A stretch of 63,961 nt of DNA, filler included, from Craspedostauros australis (GCA_030167865.1; 10 parts of 10 records of this genome joined end to end with filler, not necessarily neighbours in it), one strand, 5' to 3'. Counted from the whole stretch's first letter, positions 1 to 60,565 are shown. The notes: generated by a model from the sequence alone, not told the origin. Numbers and translations: made by a program.

Positions 1-1200
1 CAGTGGTTGGGGATGCTGATTGAGATGGAGAGGAAGTCGTTGATGGTGTCGCAGATGGCATCGTAGACGGCGCCATGGACGGTGTCTCACTATCTTCAAA
101 AGCATTTGGCGCTGAGACTGGTTGTTCGATATCCGTGGTTGGGGATGCTGATTGAGATGGAGATGAAGTCGTGGATGGTGTTGTGGACGGTGTCGCAGAT
201 GATGTCTCAGTCGATGTCTCAGACGGTGTGGTGGATGGTTGTTCAGTTTCAGTGGTTGGGGATGCTGATTGAGATGGAGAGGACGTCGTTGATGGTGTCG
301 CAGATGGCATCGTAGACGGCGCCATGGACGGTGTCTCACTATCTTCAAAATCATTTGGCGCCGAGACTGGCTGTTCAACCTCCGTGGTTGGGGATGCTGA
401 TTGAGANNNNNNNNNNNNNNNNNNNNNNNNNNNNNNNNNNNNNNNNNNNNNNNNNNNNNNNNNNNNNNNNNNNNNNNNNNNNNNNNNNNNNNNNNNNNNN
501 NNNNNNNNNNNNNNNNNNNNNNNNNNNNNNNNNNNNNNNNNNNNNNNNNNNNNNNNNNNNNNNNNNNNNNNNNNNNNNNNNNNNNNNNNNNNNNNNNNNN
601 NNNNNNNNNNNNNNNNNNNNNNNNNNNNNNNNNNNNNNNNNNNNNNNNNNNNNNNNNNNNNNNNNNNNNNNNNNNNNNNNNNNNNNNNNNNNNNNGTCGT
701 TGATGGTGTCGCAGAAGGCATCGCAGATGATGTCTCCGTTGGCGTCTCAGACGGTGTCGTGGATGGTTGATCAGTTTCAATTGTTGGGGATGCTGATTGA
801 GATGGAGAGGAAGTCGTTGATGGTGTCGCAGATGGCATCGTAGACGGCGTCATGGACGGTGCGTCGCTATCNNNNNNNNNNNNNNNNNNNNNNNNNNNNN
901 NNNNNNNNNNNNNNNNNNNNNNNNNNNNNNNNNNNNNNNNNNNNNNNNNNNNNNNNNNNNNNNNNNNNNNNNNNNNNNNNNNNNNNNNNNNNNNNNNNNN
1001 NNNNNNNNNNNNNNNNNNNTCAGTTTCAGTGGTTGGGGATGCTGATTGAGATGGAGAGGAAGTCGTTGATGGTGTCGCAGATGGCATCGTAGACGGCGTC
1101 ATGGACGGTGCGTCGCTATCTTCAAAATCATTTGGCGCCGAGACTGGCTGTTCAACCTCCGTGGTTGGAGACCATGATTGAGATGGAGATGAAGTCGTCG
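1..1200 (-). repeat. 249-bp (83-aa) higher-order coding repeat built from two PSTTSSPSQSASPTT-containing subunits
   Basis: CAGTGGTTGGGGATGCTGATTGAGATGGAGAGGA occurs at positions 1 and 250, with further copies near 780 and 1027 between gaps. Confidence 0.85.
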
Positions 1201-4200
1201 ATGGCGTTGCGGAAGGTGCCCTTGTCACATTGGTGTCTGTCGCGTTGATATCACTTGACGGAGCATCAGACGGCAGTGTCGATGGAATCTCAGTTTCGTT
1301 GGTGTCGCTTGGTGGAGCCTCTGAAGGCGTCGCTGACGGAACAACCGTCGTGTTGTTATCCGTTGTATTCTGCTCGCTTGATGGAGCCGCTGAAGGCATC
1401 GCAGATGGAATCTCAGTTGCATTTGCGTTGCTGGATGGCATGTCTGATGGCATCGCGGACGGGATCTCCGTTGCATTGGTCTCCGTTGCGTTGGTGTCGC
1501 TTGACGGAGCTGATGATGGAATCGCGGACGGAATTTCTGTTGCGTTTGGGTCCGTTGCGTTGGCATCGTTTGATGGAACCGCAGATGGAATCTCCGTTGT
1601 GTTGGTATCTGTTGTGTTGATGTCGTTTGATGGAGCCTCCGAAGGCAACGTGGACGGGACCTCTGTGGCATTTGCATCCGTCAGATTGGTGTCGCTTGAT
1701 GGCATCTCTGATGGTAGTGTCGATGGAATCTCTGTTGCGTTGTTGTCGCTTGACGGAGCAGTGGAAGGCATTGTCGACGGAGCAGTCGTTGCGTTGCTAT
1801 CCGTTGTATTGGTGTCGCTCGACGGAGCTTCTGAAGGTATCGTTGAAGGAACAGCCGTTGTATTGGATTCTGTCGTATTCTGCTCGCTTGATGGAGCCTG
1901 CGAAGGCATCGCAGATGGAATCTCAGTTGCATTTGCGTCGCTGGACGTCATGTCTGATGGCATCGCGGACAGAACCTCCGTTGCATTGGTCTCCGTTGCG
2001 TTGTTGTCGCTCGATGGTGCCTCTGAAGGAATCATCGATGGAGCAGCCGTTGCATTAGAGTCTGTTTCGTTGGAATCACTTGATGGAGCGGATGATGGTA
2101 TCGTAGATGGAATCTCTGTTTCGTTGGTGTCCGTCGCATTAGTGTCGCTAGACGGAGCCTCCGAAGGCATCATCGATGGAACTGTCGTCGCGTTTGTGTC
2201 GCTGGATGGCATATCTGATGGCAGCACCGATGGGACCTCCGTTGTGTTGTTGCCATTTGATGGCGCAGACGATGGCACCGAGGACGGGAACTCAGTTGCA
2301 TTGGAGCCCGTCGCATTGGTGTCGCCAGATGGCATCACAGATGGAACAGCCGTCGCATTGGTCTCAATCGATGGGACACCAGAAGGCATCAACGATGGGA
2401 CCTCAGTTGTATTTCCGTCGGTTGTGTTGTTCTCGCTTGGAGTAGATGAGAGCATCGCTGACGGGACCTCTGTTGCATTGGTCTCCGTCAAGTTGGATTC
2501 TCTGGAAGGCCTGTCTGATGGCATCGCAGATGGAGCAGCCGTTGTATTTGAGTCTGTAGTATTTTGGTCACTGGATGGAGCCAATGATGGCAGCTCGGAC
2601 GGGGCCTCTGTTGCGTTCGAGTCTGTCGCATTGGTTCCAATCGATGGAGTCTGCGAAGGTATCATCGATGGAATAGTTGTTGCATTTGTGCCTGTTATGT
2701 TGTTGTTGGACGGAGTAGACGATGGCATCATCGATGGCATCGCTGTGACATTGGCGTCAGTTCCATTGGTATCGCTTGGCGCGGAGGAGGGCATGACGGA
2801 CGGGATATCCGTTGCATTGACATTAGTTTCGTTGGTGTTGGTTGGGGAGCCCGAAGGCATGGTCGATGGCACCTCCGTCGTATTGACGTCAGTTGCGTTG
2901 ACCTCGCTTGGTGCGACCGATGGCAGTGTTGATGGAATCTCCGTCGCATTGGTATCGGTTGCGTTGGTCTCGCTTGGTGCGGCTGATGGCGTCGTTGATG
3001 GGGTCTCCGTCGCATTGGCATCGGTTGCATTGGTCTCGCTTGGCGCATCAGAACGCATCGTTGATGGAATTGCCGTTGCATTGGCATCAGTTGCGTTGGT
3101 CTCACTTGGTGTGGCCGATGGCATCGTTGATGGCACCTCCGTTGCATTGGCATCGGTTGCATTGGTCTCACTTGGTGCATCAGAAGGCATGGTTGATGGC
3201 ACCTCCGTGCTGTTGGGATCAGTTGCGTTGGTCTCACTTGGTGCGTTCGATGGCATCATCGATGGGGTCTCCGTTGTATTGGTATCGGTTGCATTGGTCT
3301 CACTTGGTGCGTTCGAAGGCATCGTTGATGGAACATCCGTGCTGTTGGCGGTAGTTGAATTGGTCTCGCTTGGTGCGTTCGATGGCATGGTTGATGGAAT
3401 CTCTGTGCTGTTGGCGGTAGTTGCATTGGTCTCGCTTGGTGCATCAGAAGGCATGGTTGATGGAATCTCCGTGCTGTTGGCGGTAGTTGAATTGGTCTCA
3501 CTTGGTGCGTTCGATGACATCGTTGATGGCACATCCGTGCTGTTGGCGGTAGTTGAATTGGTCTCACTTGGTGCGTTCGATGGCATGGTTGATGGCACAT
3601 CCGTGCTGTTGGCATCGGTTGCATTGGTCTCATTTGGTGCATCAGAAGGCATGGTTGATGGCACATCCGTGCTGTTGGCGGTAGTTGCATTGGTCTCACT
3701 TGGTGCATCAGAAGGCATGGTTGATGGCACATCCGTGCTGTTGGCATCGGTTGCATTGGTCTCGCTTGGTGCGTTCGATGGCATCGTTGATGGAACATCC
3801 GTGCTGTTGGCGGTAGTTGCATTGGTCTCACTTGGTGCATCAGAAGGCATGGTTGATGGAACATCCGTGCTGTTGGCGGTAGTTGCATTGGTCTCACTTG
3901 GTTCGACCGATGGCAGTGTTGATGGAATCTCCGTCGCATTGGCATCGGTTGCGTTGGTCTCACTTGGTGCGTTCGATGGCANNNNNNNNNNNNNNNNNNN
4001 NNNNNNNNNNNNNNNNNNNNNNNNNNNNNNNGTAGTTGCATTGGTCTCACTTGGTGCATCAGAAGGCATGGTTGATGGCACATCCGTGCTGTTGGCGGTA
4101 GTTGCATTGGTCTCATTTGGTTCGACCGATGGCAGTGTTGATGGAATCTCCGTCGCATTGGCATCGGTTGCGTTGGTCTCACTTGGTGCGTTCGATGGCA

Positions 4201-7200
4201 TCGTTGATGGAACATCCGTGCTGTTGGCATCGGTTGCATTGGTCTCGCTTGGTGCGTTCGATGGCATGGTTGATGGAATCTCCGTGCTGTTGGCGGTAGT
4301 TGCATTGGTCTCACTTGGTGCATCAGAAGGCATGGTTGATGGCACATCCGTGCTGTTGGTGTTGGTCGCATTGGTCTCACTTGGTGCGTTCGAAGGCATC
4401 GTTGATGAAATCTCCGTCGCATTGGCGTTTGTTGCATTGGGCTCGCTTGGTGCGGCCGACGGCATTGTTGATGGACTCTCCGTGCTGTTGGCGGTAGTTG
4501 CATTGGTCTCACTTGGTGCATCAGAAGGCATCATGGATGGCGTCTCCGTCGAGTCAACATCAGTTGTATTGGCTTCGCTTGGTGTTTCTGAGGGTATCAT
4601 GGATGGAACCTCCGTTGCATTCAACTCGGTTGCGTTGGCCTGGGTTGGACTGTCTGACGGCATCATCGATGGAATCTCCGTTTCATTGAAGTTCGTGACA
4701 TTGGTGTTGCTTGGCGCGTCCGAAGGTATGGTTGATGGAACATCCATTGAGTTGGCGTCGGTTGCATTGATATCACTTGGAGCTAACGAAGGAATGGTCG
4801 ATGGCACTTCCGTTGCATTGACGTCCGTGGCGTTGATCTCACTTGGAGCTGACGAAGGTATGGTCGATGGGATCTCCGTTGAGTTGGTGTCGGTTGTATT
4901 GACTTCGCTTGGAGCCGACGAAGGCATCGTGGATGGGATCTCCGTTTCATTCGTATCGGTTGTATTGATCTCACTTGGTGAGTTCGAAGGTATGGACGAC
5001 GGAATCTCCGTGATGTTGGCACCGGTTGTATTGATCTCACTTGGAGCAGACGAAGGCATCGTGGATGGGATCTCGGTTGAGTTGACGTCGGTTGCATTGG
5101 TCTCACTTGGTGCAGACAAAGGCATGGTCGATGGGATCTCCGTTGCATTGACGTCCGTGGCGTTGACCTCGCTTGGAGCAGACGAAGGCATCGTGGATGG
5201 CACTTCCGTTGCATTTGTGTCGGTTGTATTGATCTCACTTGGAGCAGACGAAGGCATGGTCGATGGAACCTCCGTTGCATTGACGTCCGTGGCGTTGATC
5301 TTGCTTGGAGCTGACGAAGGCATCGTGGATGGCACTTCCGTTGAGTTGGTGTCGGTTGTATTGACTTCGCTTGGAGTCGACGAAGGTATGGTCGATGGGA
5401 TCTCCGTTGCATTGGTGTCGGTTGTATTGATCTCACTTGGTGCAGACGAAGGTATGGTCGATGGGATCTCCGTGCTGTTGGCATCGGTTGAGTTGATCTC
5501 GCTTGGAGCCGACGAAGGAATGGTCGATGGGATCTCCGTTGCATTGGTGTCGGTTGCATTGATCTCACTTGGTACAGACGAAGGAATGGTCGATGGCACT
5601 TCCGTTGCATTGGCGTCGGTTGCATTGGTCTCACTTGGAGCAGACGAAGGCATCGTGGATGGGATCTCTGTTGCATTGGTGTCGGTTGCATTGGCTTCAC
5701 TTGGAGCAAACGAAGAAATGGTCGATGGGATCTCTGTTGCATTGACATCAGTTGCATTGACTTCACTTGGAGCAGACGAAGGAATGGTCGATGGGATCTC
5801 CGTTGCATTGGTGTCGGTTGCATTGATCTCACTTGGTGCAGACGAAGGAATGGTCGATGGGATCTCCGTTGCATTGGTGTCGGTTGCGTTGATCTCACTT
5901 GGTACAGACGAAGGAATGGTCGATGGGATCTCCGTTGCATTGGTGTCGGTTGCATTGATCTCACTTGGTACAGACGAAGGCATCGTGGATGGGATCTCTG
6001 TTGCATTGGTGTCGGTTGCATTGATCTCGCTTGGTGCAGACGAAGGAATGGTTGATGGAACATCCGTTGAGTTGGTGTCGGTTGCATTGGTCTCACTTGG
6101 TACAGACGAAGGTATGGTCGATGGGATCTCCGTTGCATTGGTGTCGGTTGCATTGGTCTCACTTGGTACAGACGAAGGAATGGTCGATGGGATCTCCGTT
6201 GCATTGGTGTCGGTTGCGTTGATCTCGCTTGGTGCAGACGAAGGAATGGTCGATGGAATCTCCGTTGCATTGGTGTCGGTTGCATTGATCTCACTTGGTA
6301 CAGACGAAGGCATCGTGGATGGGATCTCTGTTGCATTGGTGTCGGTTGCATTGATCTCGCTTGGTGCAGACGAAGGAATGGTCGATGGAATCTCCGTTGC
6401 ATTGGAGTCCGTGGCGTTGACCTCGCTTGGAGCAAACGAAGGTATGGTCGATGGGATCTCCGTTGAGTTGGTGTCGGTTGCATTGGTCTCACTTGGAGCA
6501 AACGAAGGAATGGTCGATGGGATCTCTGTTGCATTGGCGTCGGTTGCATTGATCTCGCTTGGTGCAGACGAAGGAATGGTCGATGGGATCTCCGTTGCAT
6601 TGGTGTCGGTTGCATTGGTCTCACTTGGAGCAAACGAAGGAATGGTCGATGGAATCTCCGTTGCATTGGAGTCCGTGGCGTTGACCTCGCTTGGAGCAAA
6701 CGAAGGTATGGTCGATGGAATCTCCGTTGCATTGGTGTCGGTTGCGTTGATCTCACTTGGTACAGACGAAGGAATGGTCGATGGGATCTCCGTTGCATTG
6801 GTGTCGGTTGCATTGATCTCNNNNNNNNNNNNNNNNNNNNNNNNNNNNNNNNNNNNNNNNNNNNNNNNGTCGGTTGCATTGATCTCGCTTGGTGCAGACG
6901 AAGGAATGGTCGATGGAATCTCCGTTGCATTGGAGTCCGTGGCGTTGACCTCGCTTGGAGCAAACGAAGGAATGGTCGATGGGATCTCCGTTGAGTTGGT
7001 GTCGGTTGCATTGGTCTCACTTGGAGCAAACGAAGGAATGGTCGATGGGATCTCCGTTGCATTAGAGCCCGTGGCGTTGACCTCGCTTGGAGCAAACGAA
7101 GGCATGGCCGATGGAATCTCCGTTGCATTGGTGTGGGTTGTATTGGTCTCACTTGGTGCAGACGAAGGAATGGTCGATGGAATCTCCGTTGCATTGGTGT

Positions 7201-10200
7201 CGGTTGCATTGGTCTCACTTGGAGCAAACGAAGGAATGGTCGATGGGATCTCCGTTGCATTGGCGTCGGTTGCATTGATCTCGCTTGGTGCAGATGAAAG
7301 TATGGTCGATGGGATCTCCGTTGAGTTGGTGTCGGTTGCGTTGATCTCACTTGGTACAGATGAAGGCATGGTCGATGGGATCTCCGTTGCATTCGTGTCA
7401 GTTGCATTGACTTCGCTTGGAGCAAACGAAGGAATGGTCGATGGGATCTCCGTTGCATTGGAGTCCGTGGCGTTGACCTCGCTTGGAGCTGACGAAGGAA
7501 TGGTCGATGGGATCTCCGTTGAGTTGGCGTCGGTTGCATTGGTCTCACTTGGAGCCGACGAAGGCATCGTGGATGGGATCTCTGTTGCATTGGTGTCGGT
7601 AGTATTGACTTCACTTGGAGCAGACGAAGGAATGGTCGATGGGATCTCTGTTGCATTGACATCAGTTGCATTGACTTCGCTTGGAGCCGACGAAGGAATA
7701 GTCGATGGGATCTCTGTTGCATTGGCGTCGGTTGCATTGACTTCGCTTGGTGCAGACGAAGGAATGGTCGATGGAACATCCGTTGCATTGGAGTCCGTGG
7801 CGTTGACCTCGCTTGGAGCAAACGAAGGAATGGTCGATGGGATCTCCGTTGAGTTGACGTCCGTGGCGTTGATCTCACTTGGTGCAGACGAAGGAATGGT
7901 CGATGGAATCTCCGTTGCATTGGTGTCGGTTGCATTGATCTCGCTTGGTGCAGACGAAGGTATGGTCGATGGGATCTCCGTTGCATTCGTGTCGGTTGCG
8001 TTGATCTCACTTGGTNNNGACGAAGGAATGGTCGATGGAATCTCCGTTGCATTGGAGTCCGTGGCGTTGACCTCGCTTGGAGCAAACGAAGGAATGGTCG
8101 ATGGAATCTCCGTTGAGTTGGTGTCGGTTGCATTGGTCTCAGTTGGAGCAAACGAAGGAATGGTCGATGGGATCTCTGTTGCATTGACATCAGTTGCATT
8201 GACTTCACTTGGAGCAGACGAAGGCATGGTCGATGGGATCTCCGTTGCATTGGAGTCCGTGGCGTTGACCTCGCTTGGAGCAAACGAAGGAATGGTCGAT
8301 GGAATCTCCGTTGCATTGGCGTCGGTTGCATTGGTCTCACTTGGAGCAGACGAAGGCATGGTCGATGGGATCTCTGTTGCATTGACATCAGTTGCATTGA
8401 CTTCGCTTGGAGCAAACGAAGGAATGGTCGATGGGATCTCCGTTGCATTGGCGTCGGTTGCATTGATCTCGCTTGGTGCAGACGAAGGAATGGTCGATGG
8501 AATCTCCGTTGCATTGGAGTCNNNNNNNNNNNNNNNNNNNNNNNNNNNNNNNNNNNNNNNNNNNNNNNNNNNNNNNNNNNNNNNNNNNNNNNNNNNNNNN
8601 NNNNNNNNNNNNNACGAAGGAATGGTCGATGGGATCTCCGTTGCATTGGCGTCGGTTGCATTGGTCTCGCTTGGAGCAGACGAAGGAATGGTCGATGGAA
8701 CATCCGTNNNNNNNNNNNNNNNNNNNNNNNNNNNNNNNNNNNNNNNNNNNNNNNNNNTGCATTGATCTCACTTGGTACAGACGAAGGAATGGTCGATGGC
8801 ACTTCCGTTGCATTGGCGTCGGTTGCATTGGTCTCACTTGGTACAGACGAAGGAATGGTCGATGGGATCTCCGTTGAGTTGGTGTCGGTAGTATTGACTT
8901 CGCTTGGAGCAGACGAAGCCATCGTGGATGGCACTTCCGTTGCATTGGCGTCGGTTGCATTGGTCTCACTTGGAGTCGACGAAGGAATGGTCGATGGGAC
9001 CTCCGTTGCATTGGTGTGGGTTGTATTGATCTCACTTGGAGCTGACGAAGGAATGGTCGATGGCACTTCCGTTGCATTGGTGTCGGTTGCACTGATCTCG
9101 CTTGGTGCAGACGAAGGTATGGTCGATGGAATCTCCGTTGAGTTGGTGTCGGTTGCATTGGTCTCACTTGGTACAGACGAAGGAATGGTCGATGGGATCT
9201 CCGTTGCATTGGCGTCGGTTGCATTGGTCTCACTTGGAACAGACGAAGGCATCGTGGATGGGATCTCTGTTGCATTGGTGTCGGTTGTATTGATCTCACT
9301 TGGAGCTGACGAAGGAATGGTCGATGGGATCTCTGTTGCATTGACATCAGTTGCATTGACTTCGCTTGGACCCGACGAAGGCATGGTCGACGGGATCTCC
9401 GTTGCATTGGAGTCCGTGGCGTTGACCTCGCTTGGAGCAGACGAAGGAATGGTCGATGGGATCTCCGTTGCATTGGCGTCGGTTGCATTGGTCTCACTTG
9501 GAGCTGACGAAGGCATCGTAGATGGCACTTCCGTTGCATTGGCGTCGGTTGCATTGATCTCGCTTGGTGCAGACGAAGGTATGGTCGATGGAATCTTCGT
9601 TGCATTGGCGTCGGTTGCATTGACTTCACTTGGAGCAAACGAAGGAATGGTCGATGGAATCTCCGTTGCATTGGAGTCCGTGGCGTTGATCTCACTTGGA
9701 GCAGACGAAGGCATCGCGGATGGGATCTCCGTTGAGTTGACGTCGGTTGTATTGACTTCGCTTGGTACAGACGAAGGTATGGTCGATGGGATCTCCGTTG
9801 CGTTGGCGTCGGTTGCATTGACTTCGCTTGGAGCAGACGAAGGCATCGTGGATGGCACTTCCGTTGAGTTGGTGTCGGTTGTATTGACTTCGCTTGGAGC
9901 CGACGAAGGAATGGGCGATGACACTTCCGTTGCATTGGCGTCGGTTGCATTGACTTCACTTGGAGCAGACGAAGGTATGATCGATGGGATCTCCGTTGAG
10001 TTGACACCAGTTGCGTTGACTTCGCTTGGAGCTGACGAAGGTATGGTCGATGGAATCTCCGTTGCATTGGTGTCGGTTGCATTGATCTCACTTGGTGCAG
10101 ACGAAGGCATGGTCGATGGAATCTGCGTTGAGTTGGTGTTGGTTGCATTGATCTCACTTGGTGCCGACGAAGGCATTATGGATGGGATCTCCGTTTCGTT

Positions 10201-13200
10201 GAAGTCCGTGACATTGATCGCACTTGGAGCCGACGAAGGCATCGTGGATGGGATCTCCGTTGCATTGGCGTCGGTTGCATTGATCTCACTTGGGGAGTCT
10301 GAGGGCATCCTGGATGGAATCTCCGTTGCATTGACGTCGGTTGCATTGATCTCACTGGATGCAGACGAAGGTATGGTCGATGGGATCTCTGTTGCATTGA
10401 CATCAGTTGCATTGACTTCGCTTGGTGCAGACGAAGGTATGGTCGATGGAATCTCCGTTGCATTGGCGTCGGTTGCATTGACTTCACTTGGAGCAAACGA
10501 AGGAATGGTCGATGGAATCTCCGTTGCATTGGAGTCCGTGGCGTTGATCTCACTTGGAGCCGACGAAGACATCGTGGATGGCACTTCCGTTGCATTGGTG
10601 TCGGTTGCGTTGATCTCACTTGGGGAAGACGAAGGAATGGTCGATGGGACCTCCGTTGCATTGGTGTCGGTTGCATTGACTTCACTTGGTGCCGACGAAG
10701 GTATGGTCGATGGAATCTCCGTTTCATTGACATCAGTTGCATTGACTTCGCTTGGGGCCGACGAAGGAATAGTCGATGGGATCTCCGTTGAGTTGACGTC
10801 GGTTGCATTGGTCTCACTTGGAGCAGACGAAGGCATCGTGGATGGAATCTCCGTTGAGTTGGTGTCGGTTGTATTGATCTCACTTGGAGCAGACGAAGGA
10901 ATGGTCGATGGAACATCCGTGCTGTTGGCATCGGTTGTATTGATCTCACTTGGAGCAGACGAAGGCATCGTGGATGGGATCTCCGTTGAGTTGACGTCGG
11001 TTGTATTGATCGCACTTGGTGCAGACGAAGGAATGGTCGATGGAATCTCCGTTGAGTTGGTGTCGGTTGCATTGATCTCACTTGGAGCCGACGAAGGTAT
11101 CGTGGATGGGACCTCCGTTGAGTTGGTGTCGGTTGCATTGACTTCACTTGGAGCTGACGAAGGCATCGTAGATGGCACTTCCGTTGAGTTGGCGTCGGTT
11201 GCATTGGTCTCACTTGGAGCAGACGAAGGCATCGTGGATGGCGCTTCCGTTGAGTTGGTGTCGGTTGCATTGATCTCACTTGGAGCAGACGAAGGAATGG
11301 TCGATGGAACATCCGTGCTGTTGGCATCGATTGAGTTGATCTCGCTTGGAGCCGACGAAGGAATGGTCGATGGGATCTCCGTTGCATTGGCGTCGGTTGC
11401 ATTGGTCTCACTTGGAGCAGACGAAGGCATCGTGGATGGGATCTCCGTTGCATTGGTGTCGGTTGTATTGATCTCACTTGGAGCAGACGAAGGTATGGTC
11501 GATGGGATCTCCGTTGAGTTAGCCTCGGTTGTATCGATCTCACTGGGTGCAGACGAAGGCATGGTCGATGGGATCTCGGTTGCATTGACATCAGTTGCAT
11601 TGACTTCGCTTGGATCCGACGAAGGCATCGTGGACGGAATCTCAGTGACGTTGGTGTCGGTGTCAGTGATGTTGTTGTCGCTTGGAGTATCAGAAGGCAT
11701 CATGGAAGGAACATCTGTCGTATTGGCATCAGTTGTGTTAGCAGCGCTTGGAGCATCCGAAGGTATCGTTGATGGAATCTCCGTTGCATTCAAATCGGTT
11801 GCGTTGATCTCGCTGGGAGCACCAGAGGGAAAGGTTGATGGTACTTCCGTTACATTGGCATCAGTTGTGTTGATCTCACTCGGAGCTCCAGAGGGCATGG
11901 TTGATGGGATAGTTGTCGCATTGGCATCAGTCGTGTTAGTGTTGCTTGGTGCATCAGAGGGCACCATTGATGGGATATCTGTTGTTGCATTGAAGTCAGT
12001 GGCATTCGTCTCACTCGGAACGCCCGAAGGTATCATCGATGGCATCTCTGTTGCATTCGCATCAGTCGCGTTGATATCACTTGGAGCGGCGGAAGGCATC
12101 GTGGATGGTATCTCTGTTGCATTCGCGTCAGTTGCGTTGGTCTCGCTCGGGGCATCTGAAGGCACAACCGATAGGCTAGATGGTTGAGCCGACGGCAGCA
12201 TCGACGGTTCTGTTGATGGAGCGATGGAAACCTGTGATGGAAGACCAGACGGTCCGCTGGATGGGTTCAGAGATGGAAGGTCAGATCCCGTGGATGGTTC
12301 TCCAGAGGGTGTTTCAGACGGGTCAAGCGATGGTTCATTTGATAGCAACGTTGGCCCAATTGAAGGCTCACTCGAAGGTCCATTCGAAGGGACCTCAGAC
12401 CCCCTAGATGGTCGTTCCGATGGCATGATCGACGGATTTGCCGACGGTCTATCAGATACCTGCGATGGATGATCAGAAGGACTATCAGACGGCTGAGTAG
12501 ATGGCCGATCAGACATCTGAGATGGAGTCAATGATGGGCCAGTTGATGGATAGTCCGATGGCATATCGGATGCGATCGAAGGGCCTGCAGAAGGAACGGT
12601 AGATGGTTCCGTCGATGGCACCGCTGATACTTGAGATGGTAACAACGATGGCGCCACTGATGGATTGGCTGACGGCAAGCCCGATGACTGTGATGGTGTC
12701 ATCGAAGGAGAATCGGAAGGAATTGATGAAGGCGTGTTCGATTGTTGCGATGGTTGGACCGAGGGTTCAGTTGACGGACCTGCAGATGGAAAACCAGATG
12801 CTTGAGATGGCGCTTGTGATGGCTCAACTGAAGGATCTGATGACGGCACCTCAGATGCCTGCGACGGGACGGTGGAAGGCGCATTCGACGGGTCGCGAGA
12901 TGGACCTGCCGATAGTTGGGATGGAAGCGACGAAGGCCCGGCCGAAGGGTCCGCTGAAGGAACGTCCGATGCCTGTGATGGCCCGATGGATGGTTCAGTC
13001 GACGGGGGAGCCGAAGGCAAATCCGATGCTTTGGATGGTTGATCCGAAGGTCCCATGGAAGGGTGAATAGAAGGCACCTCTGATGCTTCTGACGGTTGGT
13101 TGGAGGGTGTTATCGATGGTTCGTCCGACGGTTCATCAGATGCATTGGACGGCATCGACGATGGCGAAGCCGATGGCGCCGTCGACGGCACATCAGACGA

Positions 13201-14982
13201 TTCGGATGGTTGGTCAGAGGGCCCTACGGATGGGTCAGCAGACGGTACATCGGACGATTCGGATGGTTGAGATGAAGGTGCCGATGATGGATCCGCAGAT
13301 GGTACATCAGAAGCTTCAGATGGCTGTGATGAAGGTTCTGACGATGGATCCGCAGACGGCACATCTGATGACTCAGATGGCTGCGACGAGGGTGCCGACG
13401 ATGGATCCGCAGACGGTACATCCGATGACTCAGATGGTTGAGATGAAGGTGCCGACGATGGATCTGCAGACGGTACATCAGACGATTCGGATGGCTGTGA
13501 TGAGGGTGCCGATGATGGATCTGCAGACGGTACATCAGAAGCTTCAGATGGCTGTGATGAAGGTTCTGACGATGGATCCGCAGATGGTACATCTGATGAC
13601 TCAGATGGCTGTGACGAAGGTGCCGACGACGGATCCGCAGACGGTACATCAGACGATTCGGATGGCTGTGATGAAGGTTCTGACGACGGATCTGCAGACG
13701 GTACATCAGAAGCTTCAGATGGTTGAGATGAAGGTGCCGATGATGGATCTGCAGATGGTACATCTGATGACTCAGATGGCTGTGACGAAGGTGCCGACGA
13801 CGGATCCGCAGACGGTACATCAGACGATTCGGATGGCTGAGATGAAGGTGCCGATGATGGATCTGCAGACGGTACATCAGAAGCTTCAGATGGCTGTGAT
13901 GAAGGTNNNNNNNNNNNNNNNNNNNNNNNNNNNNNNNNNNNNNNNGATGGCTGTGATGAAGGTTCTGACGACGGATCTGCAGATGGTACATCAGACGATT
14001 CGGATGGCTGAGATGAAGGTGCCGATGATGGATCTGCAGACGGTACATCCGATGACTCAGATGGCTGTGATGAAGGTTCTGACGATGGATCCGCAGATGG
14101 TACATCAGATGACTCAGATGGCTGTGACGAAGGTGCCGACGACGGATCCGCAGACGGTACATCAGACGATTCGGATGGCTGAGATGAAGGTGCCGATGAT
14201 GGATCTGCAGACGGTACATCAGAAGCTTCAGATGGCTGTGATGAAGGTTCTGACGACGGATCTGCAGATGGTACATCAGACGATTCGGATGGCTGAGATG
14301 AAGGTGCCGATGATGGATCTGCAGACGGTACATCAGACGATTCGGATGGCTGTGATGAGGGTGCCGATGATGGATCTGCAGATGGTACATCAGAAGCTTC
14401 AGATGGCTGTGATGAAGGTTCTGATGATGGATCTGCAGACGGTACATCAGACGATTCGGATGGCTGTGACGAAGGTGCCGACGACGGATCTGCAGACGGT
14501 ACATCAGACGATTCGGATGGCTGAGATGAAGGTGCCGATGATGGATCCGCAGACGGTACATCAGAAGCTTCAGATGGCTGTGATGAAGGTGCCGATGATG
14601 GATCTGCAGACGGTACATCAGACGATTCGGATGGCTGTGACGAAGGTGCCGATGATGGATCTGCAGATGGTACATCCGATGACTCAGATGGCTGTGATGA
14701 AGGTTCTGACGACGGATCTGCAGACGGTACATCAGAAGCTTCAGATGGCTGTGATGAAGGTGCCGATGATGGATCTGCAGATGGTACATCTGATGACTCA
14801 GATGGTTGAGATGAAGGTTCTGACGATGGATCCGCAGACGGTACATCAGACGATTCGGATGGCTGTGATGAAGGTGCCGACGACGGATCCGCAGACGGTA
14901 CATCAGACGATTCGGATGGCTGTGATGAAGGTTCTGACGATGGATCCGCAGATGGTACATCTGATGACTCAGATGGCTGTGA
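1..14982 (-). CDS. Giant P/S/T-rich, acidic, mucin-like tandem-repeat glycoprotein (partial; both termini missing)
   Basis: The minus strand reads SQPSESSDVPSADP... from the scaffold edge at 14982, through PSSAPSEINATDTNATEIPSTI repeats, and continues in frame at ~1230 into ...INATDTNVTRAPSATPSTTSSPSQSWSPTTEVEQPVSAPNDFEDS. Frame jumps in the ORF track coincide with N gaps. Repeat variation respects codon structure. Confidence 0.88.
1230..12160 (-). repeat. 66-bp coding tandem repeat (22 aa: PSSAPSEINATDTNATEIPSTI), ~165 copies
   Basis: The 22-aa periodicity is clear in translation. Units are homogeneous centrally and degenerate at both edges. Copy number is span/66 and includes N gaps. Confidence 0.95.
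13200..14982 (-). repeat. 57-bp coding tandem repeat (19 aa: DVPSADPSSAPSSQPSESS), ~31 copies; degenerate 19-aa units continue to ~12180
   Basis: AGGTTCTGAC at 13561 recurs as AGGTGCCGAC at 13618 (57-bp period). The translations show 19-aa periodicity. Confidence 0.95.
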
Positions 14983-15082
14983 NNNNNNNNNNNNNNNNNN
15001 NNNNNNNNNNNNNNNNNNNNNNNNNNTTAATTAATTAANNNNNNNNNNNNNNNNNNNNNNNNNNNNNNNNNNNNNNNNNNNN
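14983..15082. other. Artificial scaffold-joining spacer (44N-TTAATTAATTAA-44N); further cores at 19658, 22048, 24348, 26362, 36195, 52024, 53764 and 61931
   Basis: An identical 12-mer with stops in all six frames occurs nine times, always centred in N runs. Confidence 0.97.
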
Positions 15083-16050: not shown

Positions 16051-16471
16051 TGTTGGTAACTGTAATCTGAGATCTTATGTCTATTTGGTAATGGTGATCC
16101 AATTTCTCTTCCTCTCTTGGTGGTGGTTGTTGGTTGCATCGTTGTCTCAGCCTGTTGTTGGTATCGATCGTCCATGATTGACGATCGCAGTTCATCGTGT
16201 TGTGTAGGTGGAGTCATTGTTATTCCTCCGTGGTATCTCGTCTTGTCCTTCATCTCTAGTCCTCTTTCGGCTACGTCGCCTGGACATTCGACTGTCCCGG
16301 CGATGCTTGTTCGCTTTCTCGGTTCATCTGGTCCATGACCGATAGTTTGGTCCATGACCTCTGAGTTGCGATCCAGACTAATTGTCAGGAGTTTTAGTCC
16401 TGTTGGTCAAGTTCTGCGTCTGTCCGTCTTCCGTGGCGCTACGTCATGCCATACTTCGACATCCTCCTTCT
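16051..16471 (-). mobile_element. Putative polypurine tract and 3' LTR of the copia element
   Basis: On the minus strand AGAAGGAGGA (16471-16462) is followed directly by TGTCGAAG at 16461. A candidate end ...GTTACCAACA lies at 16051, giving TGT...ACA termini. There is no second copy to confirm the boundary. Confidence 0.55.
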
Positions 16472-19010
16472 GGATTGCGGCGAATAGGTCTTTCTCATCC
16501 TCTTCGACTTCCAGTATGATGCGATCCCATTCTACTCGTACATGGATCATGCCATTTCGAATGTTGGTGCCATGTTGGGTCTGAAGCGATTCGTTCACGT
16601 TCTTCGTCATGATGTCACTCTCGTTTTTCTCCGAGTTGACGAATTTCACTTCGATGATCTTACGGCGACGAAGCTCTCTGATGAGATGGTATCTGACATC
16701 GATGTGTTTGGTCCGTTGGCCGACTTGCTGATTCTTGACCAGGTAGATTGCGCCGGTGTTGTCCTCCAGTATTATCCCTGGAGTCGTTATGTCGGTGATG
16801 TCTTCCATGAGCATCTGGATGAATTTGACTTCTTGTGCTCCGAGACTCAATGCGACATATTCTGCTTCTGTGCTCGAGAGTGTAGTGGATGTTTGGGTCT
16901 TTGAGATCCAGCTGATGATTGATCCACCAAGTGTGTGGATGGCTCCGCTTACACTTCTCCTGTTGTCCTTGTTGGTCGCGTAGTTGCTGTCGCACAGCGA
17001 GAGTACGCGTATCGCCTTTGGTCGGCGGTAGGTGAGCTTGATGTCTTCTCCAAGATAGCGCAAGTAGCCAACGAATCTGTCGACTTCCTTCCAGTGTTCA
17101 GCGCCTGGATTCGAGAAATGCCTTGTGAGTTCTCTCACAGCATTGGCTCCTTCGGGGAAGATCTTGGTGACAAGGTACATGATTTGGCCAACGATGCGGC
17201 GGTACATGGTCTGTTCGATTGGCTCTCCTTCGTTCTTGGTGAGGGTGACGCCTGGAGTTCCCGGTGTGTGCCATTCTCTGGTCTTCTTCTTCGTGTGATT
17301 CTTGTAGGTGTTGACAATCTTCTGCACAAGCTTGTCCATCTTCGCGATGATGAACTCCTCTCCGTTCTGGTCTTTGTGGAACGTGTAGTTGATGCCGAGA
17401 TGCTTCGCGAGCTTGCCTTCTTCTGTGAATTTGAAGCGCTTGCCGATGTTCTGTTTGAACCACTTGATCTCTGTTGGCATGCCGATGAGGAGTGTATCAT
17501 CAACAAAGCAGATGACAATGAGTGTTGTCTTCCGATACTTGTCCTTCTTCGTGAAGACGCATGGGTCTGCTTCCGATTGGGTCAATCCCATGGTCTCGAG
17601 AAGGTTTCGGTAGGTGTTGAAGAACTTGAGTGCGGCATCAACGTTGCCGTACATTGACTTCAGGAATAGCAACACATTGCTTCATTTCTCCTCCTCAGTG
17701 GTGAATCCGAGATCCACGAGTCCGTCCAGGATTTCGATGTACGTCGGCACGTCCATGTCTCCTTCGAGAAACGCTGCGGTGACGTCGATGACCTCGATGT
17801 TCCATTCCGGATGGTAGAGGTAAGAGAGGATGCCGACTCGGATGGATGAGTCCGTTGCGACGGGGGAGAAGCTTTCTTTGAAATCCTATCCAGGAATCTG
17901 CTCATATCCCTTGTTGCAACATCGACTCTTGAATCGGATGGTTCCGTCTGCTTGTTGTTTCTTGACGCAGACCCATTTCGTTCGCATGACTTTGCGTCTG
18001 GTCCTGCGTGCCTGTTCCCTTGGCACCTTCTTCCATACCTTCCTGGAGATGAAGTTCATAGCTTCTTCAGCCATGAACTTCCTCCATTCGTTGGATTCGG
18101 GTCCGGTGAGTGCCTGGCGAACGGTGGTGGGGACGTCGTCGGCTGCCATTGCTGTGAATACGAAGTCGATTGGTGTGTCTTCGTCTTCTCCGTTGGCGTT
18201 GGTGGTGAGCTTTGTTTGGTTGTGCATTCGGTGGTGCGGTTGGTCATGATTGGTGGTGTTGAGAACGATCTCGACCATGCTGGCTTTGTCGATCTCGGGG
18301 CTGGTAGCGTACCCATCGTCCTCCTGTGTTGGACGTTCGTTCTTGACTGGCAGTGGCGGTTGCGGTGCGCTGGTTACCGGTGGTGGGGTTTGGAGTATTG
18401 GCGTCGAAGTACCACGAGGAGGTGTCTCCGACTCATTCCTTCCTGCTTCGACGTCATACGATCCATCAGGAGCGGGATCGACCACCGTTTCGACATCGGC
18501 GCGATGTGGCGACGATTTCGGTTGGTCTATATTCGGATACATAGGCTTCACGACAGACGGGCTCGTCCCGGCTTCGTCGGCCCATGTGAGGACTCGGCCT
18601 GGTGGTCGCGGCGGAGCGTCCTCCTCAGTGGGAGTGCGGCTGACGCGGGCGACTTGGTAGGGCCGAGGGTTCTCCTCATGGCTTGGTGAGCCTCGTGCCG
18701 ATCGCTCCTGTGCGTTGGTAGCTGAGCTTGCCGCGGCGTCGGGGTACGCTTGTGGTGTCGCAAAGCGTAGGCTGGACAAGACGGGGTCCGGCTCGATGGT
18801 CGCGATCCCACTGCTGGTGACGAGTTTCTCGGACTGGGTGTTGCTCGTGGTTTCGGCGGTGTGCGCGGCGAGCGCGTCCTGGGTCACAGTCGGTGGCCGA
18901 GGCGTGGCAACGATTGGCCCGATGGGACCATCGCCGTCGTCGTCATCCACGAGATCAGGATACTTGACATAGATGCTCACCCCTTCCGTGGGGTGCATCC
19001 TGGTCCAATC
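16407..19010 (-). pseudogene. Ty1/copia pol remnant (integrase C-tail, Pro-rich linker, reverse transcriptase, RNase H)
   Basis: RT motifs: KWV, FKSRCCNKGYEQIPG, FSPVA, IDVTAAFLEG, KSMYG, DPCVF, CFVDD. RNase H motifs: CDSNYA, SSTEAEY, EDN, RTKHIDVRYH, DIMTK. In-frame stops: TAG 17886-17888 and TGA 17682-17684. Confidence 0.93.
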
Positions 19011-19535
19011 TGTTGGCAAGTTCCGCTCACGGTAACCTACGATCGTGGAAGATGGTGTTGGTTGATAGTCGTCTGTTTGCTATTTCATTACGTTGGCACT
19101 CTGATACTCTCGGTGTCCGTTCGTTCTCTTGCCCGATGCTCTCAGCGCTTCAATCTGTTTCGTAGATTCAGTCTCCGACTATGAGTCGGTACGCGAGATC
19201 CTCTCTCGCTCCTCTCTGTATTCTCTCTCTCTCTCTCTACATCGTGTGCTTGTGCTACACGATCCTCCGTGTTTGATGCGTACTCCGCATTCGACACTCT
19301 GTTCGTTCAGTACTGGTTCCTACTCCATGAGTACTTACCATTTGAAGTTCACCTTCAGTATCNNNNNNNNNNNNNNNNNNNNNNNNNNNNNNNNNNNNNN
19401 NNNNNNNNNNNNTCACCTTCAGTATCCATGATCTTCATGGGTCATCTGATCTTCACCTCCTGTTCTGACTTGGAGACAGATGTCGACGTGGTGACACGAT
19501 GACATCCTGTCGACGTCAGTAGGTGTCCTTCTGGG
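19011..19535 (-). mobile_element. LTR family A, copy 1 (partial), abutting and interrupting the copia pol
   Basis: Begins TGTTGGCAAG on the plus strand and is colinear with 51288-51979 and 62661-63364. Confidence 0.8.
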
Positions 19536-19778
19536 ACACGCGGCAAAATGTCGAGTATGACCCCAAAACCTCATGACTTAAATACGAACGACAGTTTCAG
19601 TGATGTTTGATATNNNNNNNNNNNNNNNNNNNNNNNNNNNNNNNNNNNNNNNNNNNNTTAATTAATTAANNNNNNNNNNNNNNNNNNNNNNNNNNNNNNN
19701 NNNNNNNNNNNNNGGACACATTTGGGCCCACAACTAGATCTGTTCTATTGGATTGAGTAATCTCTTGTGTTCCAGTGC

Positions 19779-20028: not shown

Positions 20029-22103
20029 TACATAGTCCGTTAGATGCAAGTTCTTATTTCAATGTTCACGTCCTACAGAATCTGTAACTTTCTGTGGCAA
20101 AAAATACTTATCTCTAATTCGTGTCCTGTAAGACTCAAACTGGCTTTTTTCACTTTATTCTGGACAAATTGTTGGGTGTTCCAGAATTGCTGCGCCTCGA
20201 AGGGGCTGGGATGTCGCAACAACCACTGCTCCTCTTCATTCCTCTCGTCGCGTCACATGTGAACGCCAGGCCCAAGAGTTTTCCTTCACATTCGCGTTCC
20301 TCTGAGCCAAGGCTTTTTAATCTTCGTCGGGGGAGCGCTTTGCAGAAGACAGTGAAGCACATGGCGATGAGGTTGGTCTCAGTCTCGGTCTCGATTGTGC
20401 TTCTCTTCGCGCGCACGCTCGTGATGCGTTGCCACCGGCGATGCGGTTAACAATGTCGCTACTATTGGTGTTGTTGCTGATGATGCTGGTACGAATCTAT
20501 CTGCTCCCACGCTGCTCCTTGGGAAAGCAAAGCATTTCTAGAACATAGACAGAACATGTGTTTGGGGTGGTTGCGAGGACTGTTCGACTGCATCCTCGGC
20601 GAGTATACCACATGAATCACATTGAAGTGCGGCATCACTCTTGGCAACTCCATCGAACGCTCTGGATCTCTCGTGTTGCATTCCTGCATGCCTCTGTCTT
20701 CTGCCAATACGCCGGATCGTGGCGGCTTCACCGTACACGCGATGACGACACGCATTATCACATTGGCGGGTGTGCTTGATCTTTCAAGTTTTATCCGCTG
20801 AATGACCGAAGCGGGAGAATGGAGCCGGTCCGAGAATAACTTTGTGGGCATTGGAAGGCCACAAAAGCGCCAACACGTCTGGGTGCAAACATATCATGAC
20901 AGTAACACAACACAACCAGAATTAACACAGCCATTATTACGACTTTGATACTTTCGAATGCTGTGCATACTTGCGTGTCTCGTCACAGCATCAATTCAAC
21001 ACAAACGTCATTCCCAGAGTTTCTTGGTGACGCAAACCAATAAATAGAGCGGATCAAGAAATGCCATTGGTGAAGCACAACAGCTTTCAGTTGTCGGAGC
21101 TGGTCGTGATCACAACCTCAACGAGATAACATTTAGAAATGAGTGAAGGTGGTCACGGAGAAAATAGGAACTTGGTGGTGAACGCGCAAGGACCAATGTG
21201 TGCGGGTGTGATCCGTGTGTGTCGCAAGCGGTAGCTAGTGGGGCCTTGTCGACTCACTTCAGCAGTGGCGCACCACATCGCAACTTCTACCAACGACGTC
21301 AGCAACGCGAGTGCGAATGAAACGGCGTCAATCTCGTTCAATTCGTATGAATGCCATGCACACACATCAACAGGACAGGAACGAATCTCTTTGTTTTGAG
21401 ACCAGCTGTTATTGGTGTGGATCATGTTGTTGGACTGTGTTGAAGAGACGAAGGATCGAATGAGCTGTCATAAAAAACAATTGGCGAACAGATTGTCCTC
21501 CGAAGCGCAGCATCACCACACAGCAATCGACAAGCATTGCCAGGGTGATCACAAGCCTCTCTCCGGCCAAAGCCAGATTTAAACCAAAGGTACGTTCCGT
21601 TCAGCGATCAATTGCAAATGCAGGGTTGCAAGATGAATGATTGTGTGTAGGGCGAGGAGCCCATGACGGAAGGATTCGTTCGCAGCACTCATCCTGCCCG
21701 ACACAGCGTGCTGCCTCAAGCAGATGCACACATCGGGAGCATCAGCATCACAGGCAGCATCTGGGGAGGACGCTCCCATCGGATCAGCTGTCATCGTCAT
21801 GGGAGTGTGATGCGTTATGATGCCACGCGACCTCCACGCTTGTCGTTCTGATCGCATGCTTGCTTTGGCATGTTGGTGACGTGCTGTGTCATCACCTCCA
21901 ACTCTGCTCTACTCTGCCTGCCCAATACACTGCTGCCACGTTCTGTTACTCTGCCCAACTCAACTCAACCCCACATCTCTCGTGTTTCACCGGTACGAGT
22001 GCTNNNNNNNNNNNNNNNNNNNNNNNNNNNNNNNNNNNNNNNNNNNNTTAATTAATTAANNNNNNNNNNNNNNNNNNNNNNNNNNNNNNNNNNNNNNNNN
22101 NNN

Positions 22104-24303: not shown

Positions 24304-24403
24304 NNNNNNNNNNNNNNNNNNNNNNNNNNNNNNNNNNNNNNNNNNNNTTAATTAATTAANNNNNNNNNNNNNNNNNNNNNNNNNNNNNNNNNNNNNNNNN
24401 NNN

Positions 24404-58960: not shown

Positions 58961-60565
58961 ATTTCATGGTGCGACAAGGAACACACTAAGTGGAAAGTAG
59001 TCCGTTCTTGAGATGAACTTCAACTTATGCTCTCTATCCTTCATGAATCGTTGCCGAATTGCTCGTTTGGACCTATTTCGACCTTGATCCGGAAGATTTT
59101 CGTATCGCTGCGGAAGGATCCCTGTTCGACACATGTGGTGCTCTGTTGTCATCATGTCGATGTCGACGTTGATGTCGATGTCGATGTCGATGTTGGCTGT
59201 GCCCGCACATGATGCATGTCACCAATTCAGAGATTACATGAAGAGAGGGAGGATTACTGATGGCGTCTCCAGTCTCTTCACAAACACATTGGTCTTGTCG
59301 ATGTCGGTGAGCGTCGTCAGAGAAGAAAGCCACCAAAGCGGTCACCGCAAGTCACAGAGAATCTCAAGGGGTCATCGAATGCCTCTCTGTCTTCGCCCAA
59401 CGGAGATTCTTCGCTGGGACGACGAACATTTGTTCACAACATGTCACGCATCTTGTGCAGAGTTGTGTTGTATTCGTCACACGAATGCTTGTGAGGGTGA
59501 AGTACACCAACGCGAAACGGTTCCTACTTTCAAGAGTAGGAACCCTTCACTGGCGGCTCCAGAGTCAGGGCAACACGTTCGGAATTGTTGATTGCCGCAG
59601 CTGCACAGTAAAATGTATCAGCATTGGAGTGTTCATCCCAGGGCAAGTCGTACGCTCACATCGGCACGGACGCAATTCACCCATCATTGTAACTCGCAAG
59701 AAGCGATACTCTACTTCAATACTAGGACCACCCTCCGACCCACGCACGCCCGACCAAAATTCGAAAAAGGTGTTTCGTCCCTGCAAAGCGCATTCAGCTC
59801 TCGTTCCCTACGAGTTTCGACAGCCTGATTGTGCTTGCATCACGGAGGCGACGATCACGAAAAACCCTTCCACCCCATCAGTTGGCGAGTCTTTTTCTCC
59901 CTCCTTTTCACTGGGAAGGTGCAAACCCAGATACCGATTCATCGCTTGCGTTCTTGCGTTGAAGCGATCAAGATGTTGATGTATTTTCTGTTGCTCTACT
60001 TCAGGGCTGTTGTTTTGCGGAATGGGTTGTGGTGGTTGCGTGTTGCGTGCGAAAATACATAAAGTGTGTACCCTTTTGGAAATCAGACCGCGACAGGGTG
60101 CCCTCGTGGCACACACGAGAATTGCGGATCAAGAAGAACGACAGATGATGACCTGTGGAGATGAGCAAGAGCGGCGTGCTCCATGTCTGCTTGTCCTAGT
60201 CGTATCATACACTCTGCTCGTACGTATTATTGGTCAGGCCCAATGGATGGTGTATGTCAGGGAGGGTCATGCTGCACCATAAATGCTGGGCATCGGCATC
60301 GATCCACGGAGTCTTTCTGTCCAACGGTGATATCACCAGTTGTGAAGGTTCCAGGTTGTGGCGGAGCTTTGGCCTCCTTGGCGCCATGCCATCCTCGTAC
60401 CAGGTTGCCTCATGCACAACATCGAAGACGCAAACAAAATGGCCCAAACAACCAACAAGTCAAACTCTTCATCTCATAAATTCATCCAAGTTGTCAACCA
60501 ATAACACCAAACAAGCAACGATCAACCCTGAACGATCAATCACCAACCACCAAGTACCGACAACC

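Follow-up and report, generated by a model that had tools for sequence, protein, structure and literature searches.

How does one protein come to keep more than three hundred N-glycosylation sequons at regular intervals along one part of its length, and what might they do there? The question is posed by a tandem array of 22-amino acid (aa) units in the diatom Craspedostauros australis (GCA_030167865.1). The array lies on the minus strand at positions 1223 to 12160 of the window, that is, the whole stretch of 63,961 nucleotides (nt) that was analysed, and consists of about 160-165 units of the form PSxxPSxxPS-E-x-N-x-T-D-x-N-x-T-E-x. An earlier note on this DNA had proposed that selection maintains here a regular N-glycan bottle-brush alternating with Pro/Ser spacers. 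We find that the N and T codons of the sequons are under selection, and we consider it probable that the array is the part of a giant (~7,000 aa), surface-tethered, mucin-like filament that carries its N-glycans, a shaft that would form a zoned and selected brush.

The sequon array

The array has a period of 66 nt, and its span of 10,931 nt corresponds to 165.6 x 66 nt, in agreement with the earlier estimate of about 165 units. Its centre is homogeneous, and both edges carry irregular units of 18-24 aa. Counted inside the unbroken segments between N gaps, there are 318 N-X(not P)-S/T sequons within 1230-12170 on the minus strand, close to the figure of about 300 first put forward; this is a lower bound because 243 bases of the array are masked. 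Shuffling the composition 1,000 times gave 109.6±8.1 sequons, with a maximum of 135. The commonest types are NAT (211), NST (46), NTT (36), NET (10) and NVT (6), the same five that had been noticed initially, followed by NIT (3), NNT (3), NLT (2) and NGT (1). Every one of the 318 is N-X-T and none is N-X-S, despite serine being the most frequent residue (665/3,563), and about 317 of the 349 array Asn residues belong to sequons. Consecutive sequons are separated by 5 residues in 146 cases, by 17 in 128 and by 18 in 20, and the residue at position -2 is acidic at 280 of the 318 sites. The array is composed of 19% S, 18% T and 13% P, with 13% Asp/Glu and only 0.2% Lys plus Arg. Deletions of 5 aa and insertions of 1-2 aa are tolerated.

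Selection on the sequon codons

Selection was analysed on 131 regular 22-aa units, with 21 irregular spans and the gap-cut units set aside. Both sequons, five residues apart as the earlier note described, are present in 126 of these units, and one is present in the other five. N13, T15, N18 and T20 are retained in 129, 130, 130 and 130 units, whereas the commonest state at the middle positions 14 and 19 is found in just 75% and 58%. The earlier picture of constant N and T among varying residues is thus upheld, with the correction that P1, S2, S6 and P9 of the spacer are just as invariant (0.98-1.00). At the nucleotide level 129 of the 131 units are distinct, and the array is therefore not an assembly duplication.

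A tree of the units was used to reconstruct changes by parsimony. The four N/T codons showed 56 synonymous and 5 amino-acid changes (omega ~0.03), counts that are inflated because a tree of 66-nt repeats is subject to gene conversion; the contrast between positions is also visible without the tree, in the raw codon table. The earlier note had asked whether N and T are any more conserved than their neighbours, and they clearly are, the six adjacent codons having undergone 134 amino-acid changes against the 5 at N/T codons (p ~1e-24). The middle residue X is nearly free (omega ~0.65 there and at other variable positions); it takes nine unlike kinds (A, S, T, E, V, I, N, L and G) and never P. T3, a threonine with no Asn upstream of it, also varies freely, with omega 0.5. 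At T15 and T20 there are no Thr-to-Ser changes where 13.8 would be expected under neutrality, and all four Thr codons are in use, as are both Asn codons (AAT/AAC 93/36 and 84/46 at the two Asn positions). The irregular distal part of the array (2671-1230, 480 aa), which contains indels, still has 41 N-X-T among its 47 Asn. Nucleotide identity is 85% among central units and 72-76% among edge units, and the higher likeness of the central units may be read as a sign of concerted evolution.

Sequons are largely confined to one zone

Outside the array, about 3,250 residues of the same protein contain 54 Asn, 3 sequons and 22 blocked N-P-S/T triplets, whereas inside it there is no N-P-S/T among 348 Asn; in this count the N-X-T assigned to 1230-1 is the last site of the array, and the array total includes one artefact of segment joining. 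Four other Pro/Ser-repeat proteins of the C. australis genome have 0-1 N-X-T each. Searching the genome with the array gave 45 matches, of which 41 fell on the array's own contig and four on these Pro/Ser proteins. Two word-index protein searches returned 11 and 9 weak matches among the best 8,000 candidates scored in each; a 5-spaced pair of N-X-T is absent from all 20, so that they reflect Pro/Ser content only, and because only the top 8,000 candidates were scored, the absence of array homologues is weak evidence. Since the other Pro/Ser proteins have no paired sites, paired N-X-T appears special to the array zone, and PSxxPS appears to be a common diatom scaffold. A protein atlas comparison of the array gave nothing above 0.83. 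A loose DNA pattern did not discriminate in the C. australis genome, where it matched 402 times and its reversed control 404 times, mostly at microsatellites.

A pattern scan of metagenomes gave at least 118 loci, all of which went through a scripted count, and none of the 27 that were read by eye over their first 640-900 residues has the 22-aa unit. Two loci do have comparable features: L057:2529-4850 (minus strand), diatom-like in appearance, carries the D-T-N-A-T pair of the array within a sequon-rich stalk, and L071:685-2679 (minus strand), from an AT-rich organism, has 5-spaced sequons alternating with Pro-rich spacers. Together with P0045, a relative of the C-terminal domain that has its own sequon repeats (see below), these loci imply that similar designs recur in unannotated sequence.

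The gene and its termini

The array lies in the middle of one giant open reading frame (ORF) that takes up all of contig C5104 of the genome (1..14982, minus strand) and is open at both ends; each of its segments, as delimited by N gaps, reads through without a stop. The reading frame changes across the 50-N gap at 8708-8757, which is treated as a placeholder, a frameshift being rejected. Upstream of the array in the direction of translation are a degenerate Pro/Ser-rich linker (12161..13183, minus strand) and a 19-aa Ser/Pro/acidic array with no sequon (13184..14982, minus strand), which has a 57-nt period and 31.6 copies and continues on contig C580. The stretch 12160-13905 matches the Pfam PT repeat (PF04886, E 1.6e-29). 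Downstream is a sequon-free Pro/Ser/Thr-rich repeat of ~39-58 aa (1..1222, minus strand), which also opens contig C292. The flanking arrays contain 23-36% S and 17-21% P.

The 5′ continuation is found on C580, which shares an exact overlap of 191 nt and has the start codon at C580:26251. At the N-terminus, a tail rich in Arg precedes a hydrophobic segment (residues ~33-52, hydropathy 1.72); a stem leads on to the tripeptide RQL (102-104), after which the Pro/Ser arrays begin. On C292 there is an intron at 1381-1716, with a GTAAGT donor at 1381 and a CAG acceptor at 1716, and the spliced junction resembles the uninterrupted sequence of homologue P0025/P0061. An 8-codon micro-exon inside this intron was considered and dropped, the direct splice being the one that agrees with the homologue. 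The final exon contributes a domain of 148 aa containing eight Cys, followed by a short Pro/Ser/Thr linker and by a hydrophobic tail that ends at a stop codon (C292:2461-2463). The tail is 19 aa long (hydropathy 2.06), the stop follows directly, and small residues are located ~30-35 aa from the end, a pattern resembling that of a glycosylphosphatidylinositol (GPI) signal. The parts total 6,994 aa, a figure that is approximate owing to gaps. One sequencing run of uncertain kind contained a 348-nt contig identical to the 3′ end of the gene and a short contig in the flanking repeat, with none spanning the intron; it was not used as evidence.

The eight-Cys domain (C292:1717-2160, locus L021) is of the alpha/beta type and is predicted confidently by AlphaFold2 (pLDDT 87.6). 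A full HMMER search gave 34 matches (P0014-P0047) at E < 0.001, and a cluster look-up for 10 of them returned unnamed proteins except for one tapeworm protein; P0030, the tapeworm FN3 protein, was rejected as a spurious match. In the matching proteins the domain occurs one to five times, together with Pro/Thr linkers and either a C-terminal hydrophobic tail (16/34) or a membrane segment. In P0045, nine 8-aa units, each with an N-D-T sequon, are inserted within a domain at residues ~228-300. No matching Pfam family was found for the domain or for its 34 matches, and there was no match to it in the word index or among the sequences of solved structures. Foldseek gave no match at E < 0.001, and the best structural score in a wide comparison was Z 4.4, which does not prove that the fold is new. 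The NRF domain (PF20146) is a weak look-alike by language model (0.87), with no Pfam NRF match in the domain or the 34 matches. The domain appears to represent an unnamed, well-folded family in apparent surface proteins.

A probable tethered N-glycan brush

The predicted secretion of the protein, its GPI-type tail and the presence of two STT3 genes in a diatom all fit the N-glycan reading. A possible sequence of events is as follows. The basic N-terminal tail and the hydrophobic segment (~33-52) would act as a type II signal anchor that inserts the protein into the endoplasmic reticulum (ER), such that all of the repeats enter the lumen. During translocation, oligosaccharyltransferase would add N-glycans at the paired D/E-x-N-x-T sites, twice per unit. 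Cleavage at RQL (102-104) would free the N-terminus, and the hydrophobic C-terminal tail would be exchanged for a GPI anchor. The product would be an acidic, extended filament with a contour of ~2.4 micrometres, at 3.5 angstrom per residue (the value used in bioRxiv 2023.03.06.531300), tethered via a small disulfide-bonded domain. Its distal Ser/Pro zone would be nearly free of sequons. In the array zone, ~1.3 micrometres long, every 22 residues would carry two glycans, probably of the oligomannose type, and between the glycosylated segments would lie Pro/Ser spacers that are stiff and probably O-modified. If every site were occupied, the glycan would amount to 387-593 kDa on a peptide of 357 kDa. 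The most likely role of such a filament would be that of a hydrated surface coat or spacer, acting as a steric shield, a lubricant or a multivalent display of mannose. The selection (omega ~0.03) and the alternating layout that were originally proposed are both borne out; the proposed brush would probably be mixed rather than purely N-linked, because the spacers probably carry O-linked sugars too.

The two STT3 loci each encode a WWDYG motif (L046 and L047, corresponding to G000:C4877 and C2920). One of the ORFs exceeds 1,050 aa and has a C-terminal extension, and the N-terminal motif of both looks like that of the kinetoplastid single-subunit type. Ribophorin I and OST48 (PF04597, PF03345) gave no match, but control searches matched nowhere either.

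Published data on diatoms and on closely spaced sites agree in part with this scheme. Among mapped diatom N-glycosylation sites in two reports, 81% and 58% are N-X-T, and the glycans are mostly Man5-Man9 (PMC7864949, PMC8678454). The RXL motif is described as typical of diatom biosilica-associated proteins, where it is removed by proteolysis in secretory processing (PMC5525289). N-X-T would be kept in the array because close N-X-S sites tend to be skipped; in a reporter, N-X-S pairs two residues apart were under-glycosylated more than N-X-T pairs (PMC6761772), and this less complete modification could account for the strictness of Thr here.

Several points count against the brush, to which the structural model and the metagenome proteins considered below are to be added. 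N-X-T pairs with the spacing of the array were used incompletely in yeast, according to the same reporter study (PMC6761772). Pro is absent from X where 5.5 would be expected, and this is unspecific, since other variable positions are also Pro-poor (3 vs 10.8). Constraint on the Pro/Ser spacer is almost as strong as on the sequons, with omega 0.09-0.11 (difference from N/T, p 0.057). The junction of C5104 with C292 is made through the shared flanking repeat (86-93% identity) and has no exact overlap. The signal anchor, the RQL cleavage and the GPI signal were judged from hydropathy and by eye.

A bolder form of the proposal would be an ordered, micrometre-long N-glycan fibril. The two oligomannose glycans of each unit, whether this is extended or forms one solenoid coil, would stand in register, the D/E-x-N-x-T code would route the sites to one STT3 paralogue, one half of the molecule would be free of N-glycans and the other saturated, and the tether would be the Cys-rich domain with an undescribed fold. 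The routing would parallel that in trypanosomes, where one STT3 paralogue prefers acidic sequons (PMC9472816). We regard this form as possible but doubtful.

Alternative interpretations

The main rival to the brush is a β-solenoid in which each 22-aa unit makes one coil and N and T form stacked ladders, either structural or binding ice, silica or polysaccharide, the sequons being incidental or partly used. Modelled by AlphaFold2, six units gave as the best result a β-solenoid with a single strand in each repeat (residues 10-17; pLDDT 69, pTM 0.61), which aligns with beta-helices at Z up to 11.7. However, the structural matches are to many unrelated solenoids at 3-15% identity, the other four models reached pLDDT values of 57.5, 46.4, 44.0 and 24.0, and spurious β-solenoids have been reported for repeats modelled by AlphaFold2 (PMC11795689). 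A second argument comes from solenoid-like metagenome proteins, whose phage or bacterial β-solenoid origin was assigned from their appearance and which share the 5-residue periodicity and the bias to N-X-T (49 N-X-T and 2 N-X-S in L126); the N-X-T bias alone is therefore no proof of glycosylation. The change of Thr to Ser is, in addition, disfavoured in β strands as well. On the other side, the array has no conserved hydrophobic core, as P, E, G, F or L can stand at positions 12, 14, 17 and 19 (omega 0.6-1.1), and it contains 13% Pro and tolerates indels. Sites in the ER lumen would, moreover, be glycosylated before folding. We consider the solenoid rather unlikely.

It is also unlikely that the sites are glycosylated in a protein of a different kind, namely an acidic, RXL-processed glyco-scaffold that is shed into the silica wall or into an adhesive or stalk matrix. 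The RQL site would suit such a protein, being typical of biosilica-associated proteins (PMC5525289), as would the 13% Asp/Glu of the array with almost no Lys/Arg, and megadalton proteins rich in Pro/Thr/Ser (PTS) are described from diatom adhesive trails (bioRxiv 2023.03.06.531300). Nevertheless, Lys-rich silaffin-type motifs are absent (Lys plus Arg 0.2%), no choice-of-anchor A (CAA) or vWA domain was found in the five parts scanned against Pfam, and the GPI-type tail suggests membrane tethering.

A further scenario is that N-x-T serves as the recognition motif for another modification of Thr, with an O-glycan or a phospho-glycan, and that N-glycans are sparse. Thr is strict and never Ser, O-glycosylation is expected for diatom PTS-rich proteins (bioRxiv 2023.03.06.531300), and polypeptide alpha-GlcNAc transferase genes are described in diatoms (PMC8724618). 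The scenario nonetheless requires an unknown enzyme with a motif identical to the N-glycosylation sequon, T3 varies freely (omega 0.5) in the absence of an upstream Asn, and blocked N-P-S/T triplets occur only outside the array, all of which make it very unlikely. Finally, it is scarcely credible that the sequons descend without selection from a founder unit and owe their likeness to homogenisation by recent amplification and gene conversion, because, although centre units (85%) are more alike than edges (72-76%), the idea is refuted, barring an assembly mosaic, by the codon table and by N/T codons that vary synonymously while the amino acid is almost fixed (56 vs 5), and degenerate edge units still carry the sites.

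Comparison with known systems

On the best reading of its sequence, the protein would work like a membrane-tethered mucin, and the features tested separate it from animal mucins, Trailins and hyosophorins. Animal gel-forming and SEA mucins have vWD/C8/TIL, cystine-knot or SEA domains; none of these was matched by Pfam in five parts that include both termini, the repeats having been scanned partly. CAA (PF20597), a feature of Trailin, likewise had no Pfam match in the termini or in those repeat stretches that were scanned, although gaps in the gene could hide sequence.

The closest comparison within C. australis itself is with CaTrailin4, Ca5609 and CaFAP1, which are described as secreted, thousands of residues long and built from Pro/Thr/Ser repeats, with small Cys-rich modules and a predicted micrometre-long extended chain (bioRxiv 2023.03.06.531300). 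They differ in their expected O-glycosylation and in having CAA, vWA or interspersed Cys repeats, whereas the array protein has a 318-site N-X-T zone and just one Cys-rich domain, carries a membrane segment and RXL near its N-terminus, and ends in a GPI-type tail. CaFAP1-like proteins have alternating Cys- and PTS-rich domains; the array protein has one Cys domain, and several of its relatives have 2-5 copies with Pro/Thr linkers. CaFAP1 and the DUF1/DUF2 set are distinguished here by description.

Fish hyosophorin is made of short repeats and is cut into units at fertilisation. In flounder it consists of tandem repeats with an N-linked glycan in the repeat unit, and the carbohydrate content of hyosophorin is very high (PMC3528131). 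The array follows the same tandem-glycopeptide design with two sequons per unit, known here from sequence alone. Hyosophorin differs in being a soluble egg protein of the cortical alveolus with penta-antennary glycans (PMC3528131); no homology, Pro/Ser spacers or membrane anchor are shown for it, and the likeness to the diatom protein is one of analogy only. Because of this precedent, the array is best viewed as an extreme new form of mucin-like stalk and not as the first N-glycosylated repeat. The earlier description of the architecture as unusual holds for its scale and regularity; N-glycans on tandem repeats as such are already known (PMC3528131). No such array was found described for a diatom in the literature covered, which omitted most subscription papers.

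Mouse Muc1, the stalk of Epstein-Barr virus gp350 and Schizosaccharomyces pombe SPBPJ4664.02 have Ser/Thr/Pro repeats in which many units include N-x-S/T. SPBPJ4664.02, confirmed here solely as a listed cell-surface glycoprotein gene, would have ~4,000 aa and very many sequon units, and if this is right the scale of the array is not unique. Membrane-tethered mucins and GPI-anchored fungal adhesins resemble the array protein in having a long Ser/Thr/Pro tandem-repeat stalk, a terminal anchor, which in the diatom protein is a predicted one, and a variable number of repeats (PMC6023273). The folded domain of the diatom protein adjoins the predicted anchor, whereas that of fungal adhesins is at the distal end. 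In the table of PMC6023273, which covers 24 fungal adhesins, no entry exceeds 23 N-sites (Gsf2, 1,563 aa), compared with 318 in 3,560 aa here. Gsf2 was considered as a precedent and rejected, given its 23 sites in 1,563 aa.

Giant Pro/Thr/Ser-rich surface proteins of diatoms are assumed to be O-glycosylated (bioRxiv 2023.03.06.531300); here, more than 300 optimal N-sites are kept in one stalk and nearly excluded from the rest of the same protein. If the sites are occupied, each molecule would carry several hundred mannose-rich glycans, which would bear on the composition of diatom coats and mucilage and on how the cell is recognised by bacteria, viruses and grazers. The array offers a direct test case for the limits of closely spaced N-glycosylation. 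Should the ordered fibril prove true, algal coat or glycofibril proteins would gain a class of their own, the N-linked equivalent of mucins, and a natural substrate would be available for testing how densely oligosaccharyltransferase can act.

Other features of the window and genome

The window consists of separate contigs joined by 100-nt spacers (14983-15082, 19614-19713, 22004-22103, 24304-24403 and further ones), and neighbours across a spacer are not real. The first of these (14983..15082, without strand), composed of N44, a 12-nt six-frame stop and N44, is the artificial joint that follows the giant ORF, and the sequence past it is not the neighbour of the gene. A run of 50 N is present ~250 nt from each contig spacer. 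About 9 kb upstream of the gene, on C580, an ORF (L022:5110-7551, plus strand) has two apparent DNA-binding domains, presumably of the heat-shock-factor type. Silicon-transporter matches number 92 in the genome, which marks the host as a diatom; they are spread over many contigs, at least nine are near full length, and they apparently reflect either a large expansion or uncollapsed alleles.

Elsewhere in the window, 16407-19079 (minus strand) encodes the reverse transcriptase/RNase H of a retrotransposon, which we take to be of the Copia type, in two ORFs split by an in-frame stop near 17683. Also encoded in the genome are secreted repeat proteins rich in Cys and Gly that form a family (L168-L171, corresponding to G000:C2618, C5541, C1739 and C3737); they have a PSxL-type array at the centre whose length varies, up to ~500 aa, and the ORF at 60200-61609 (plus strand) of the window looks like the N-terminal part of another member.

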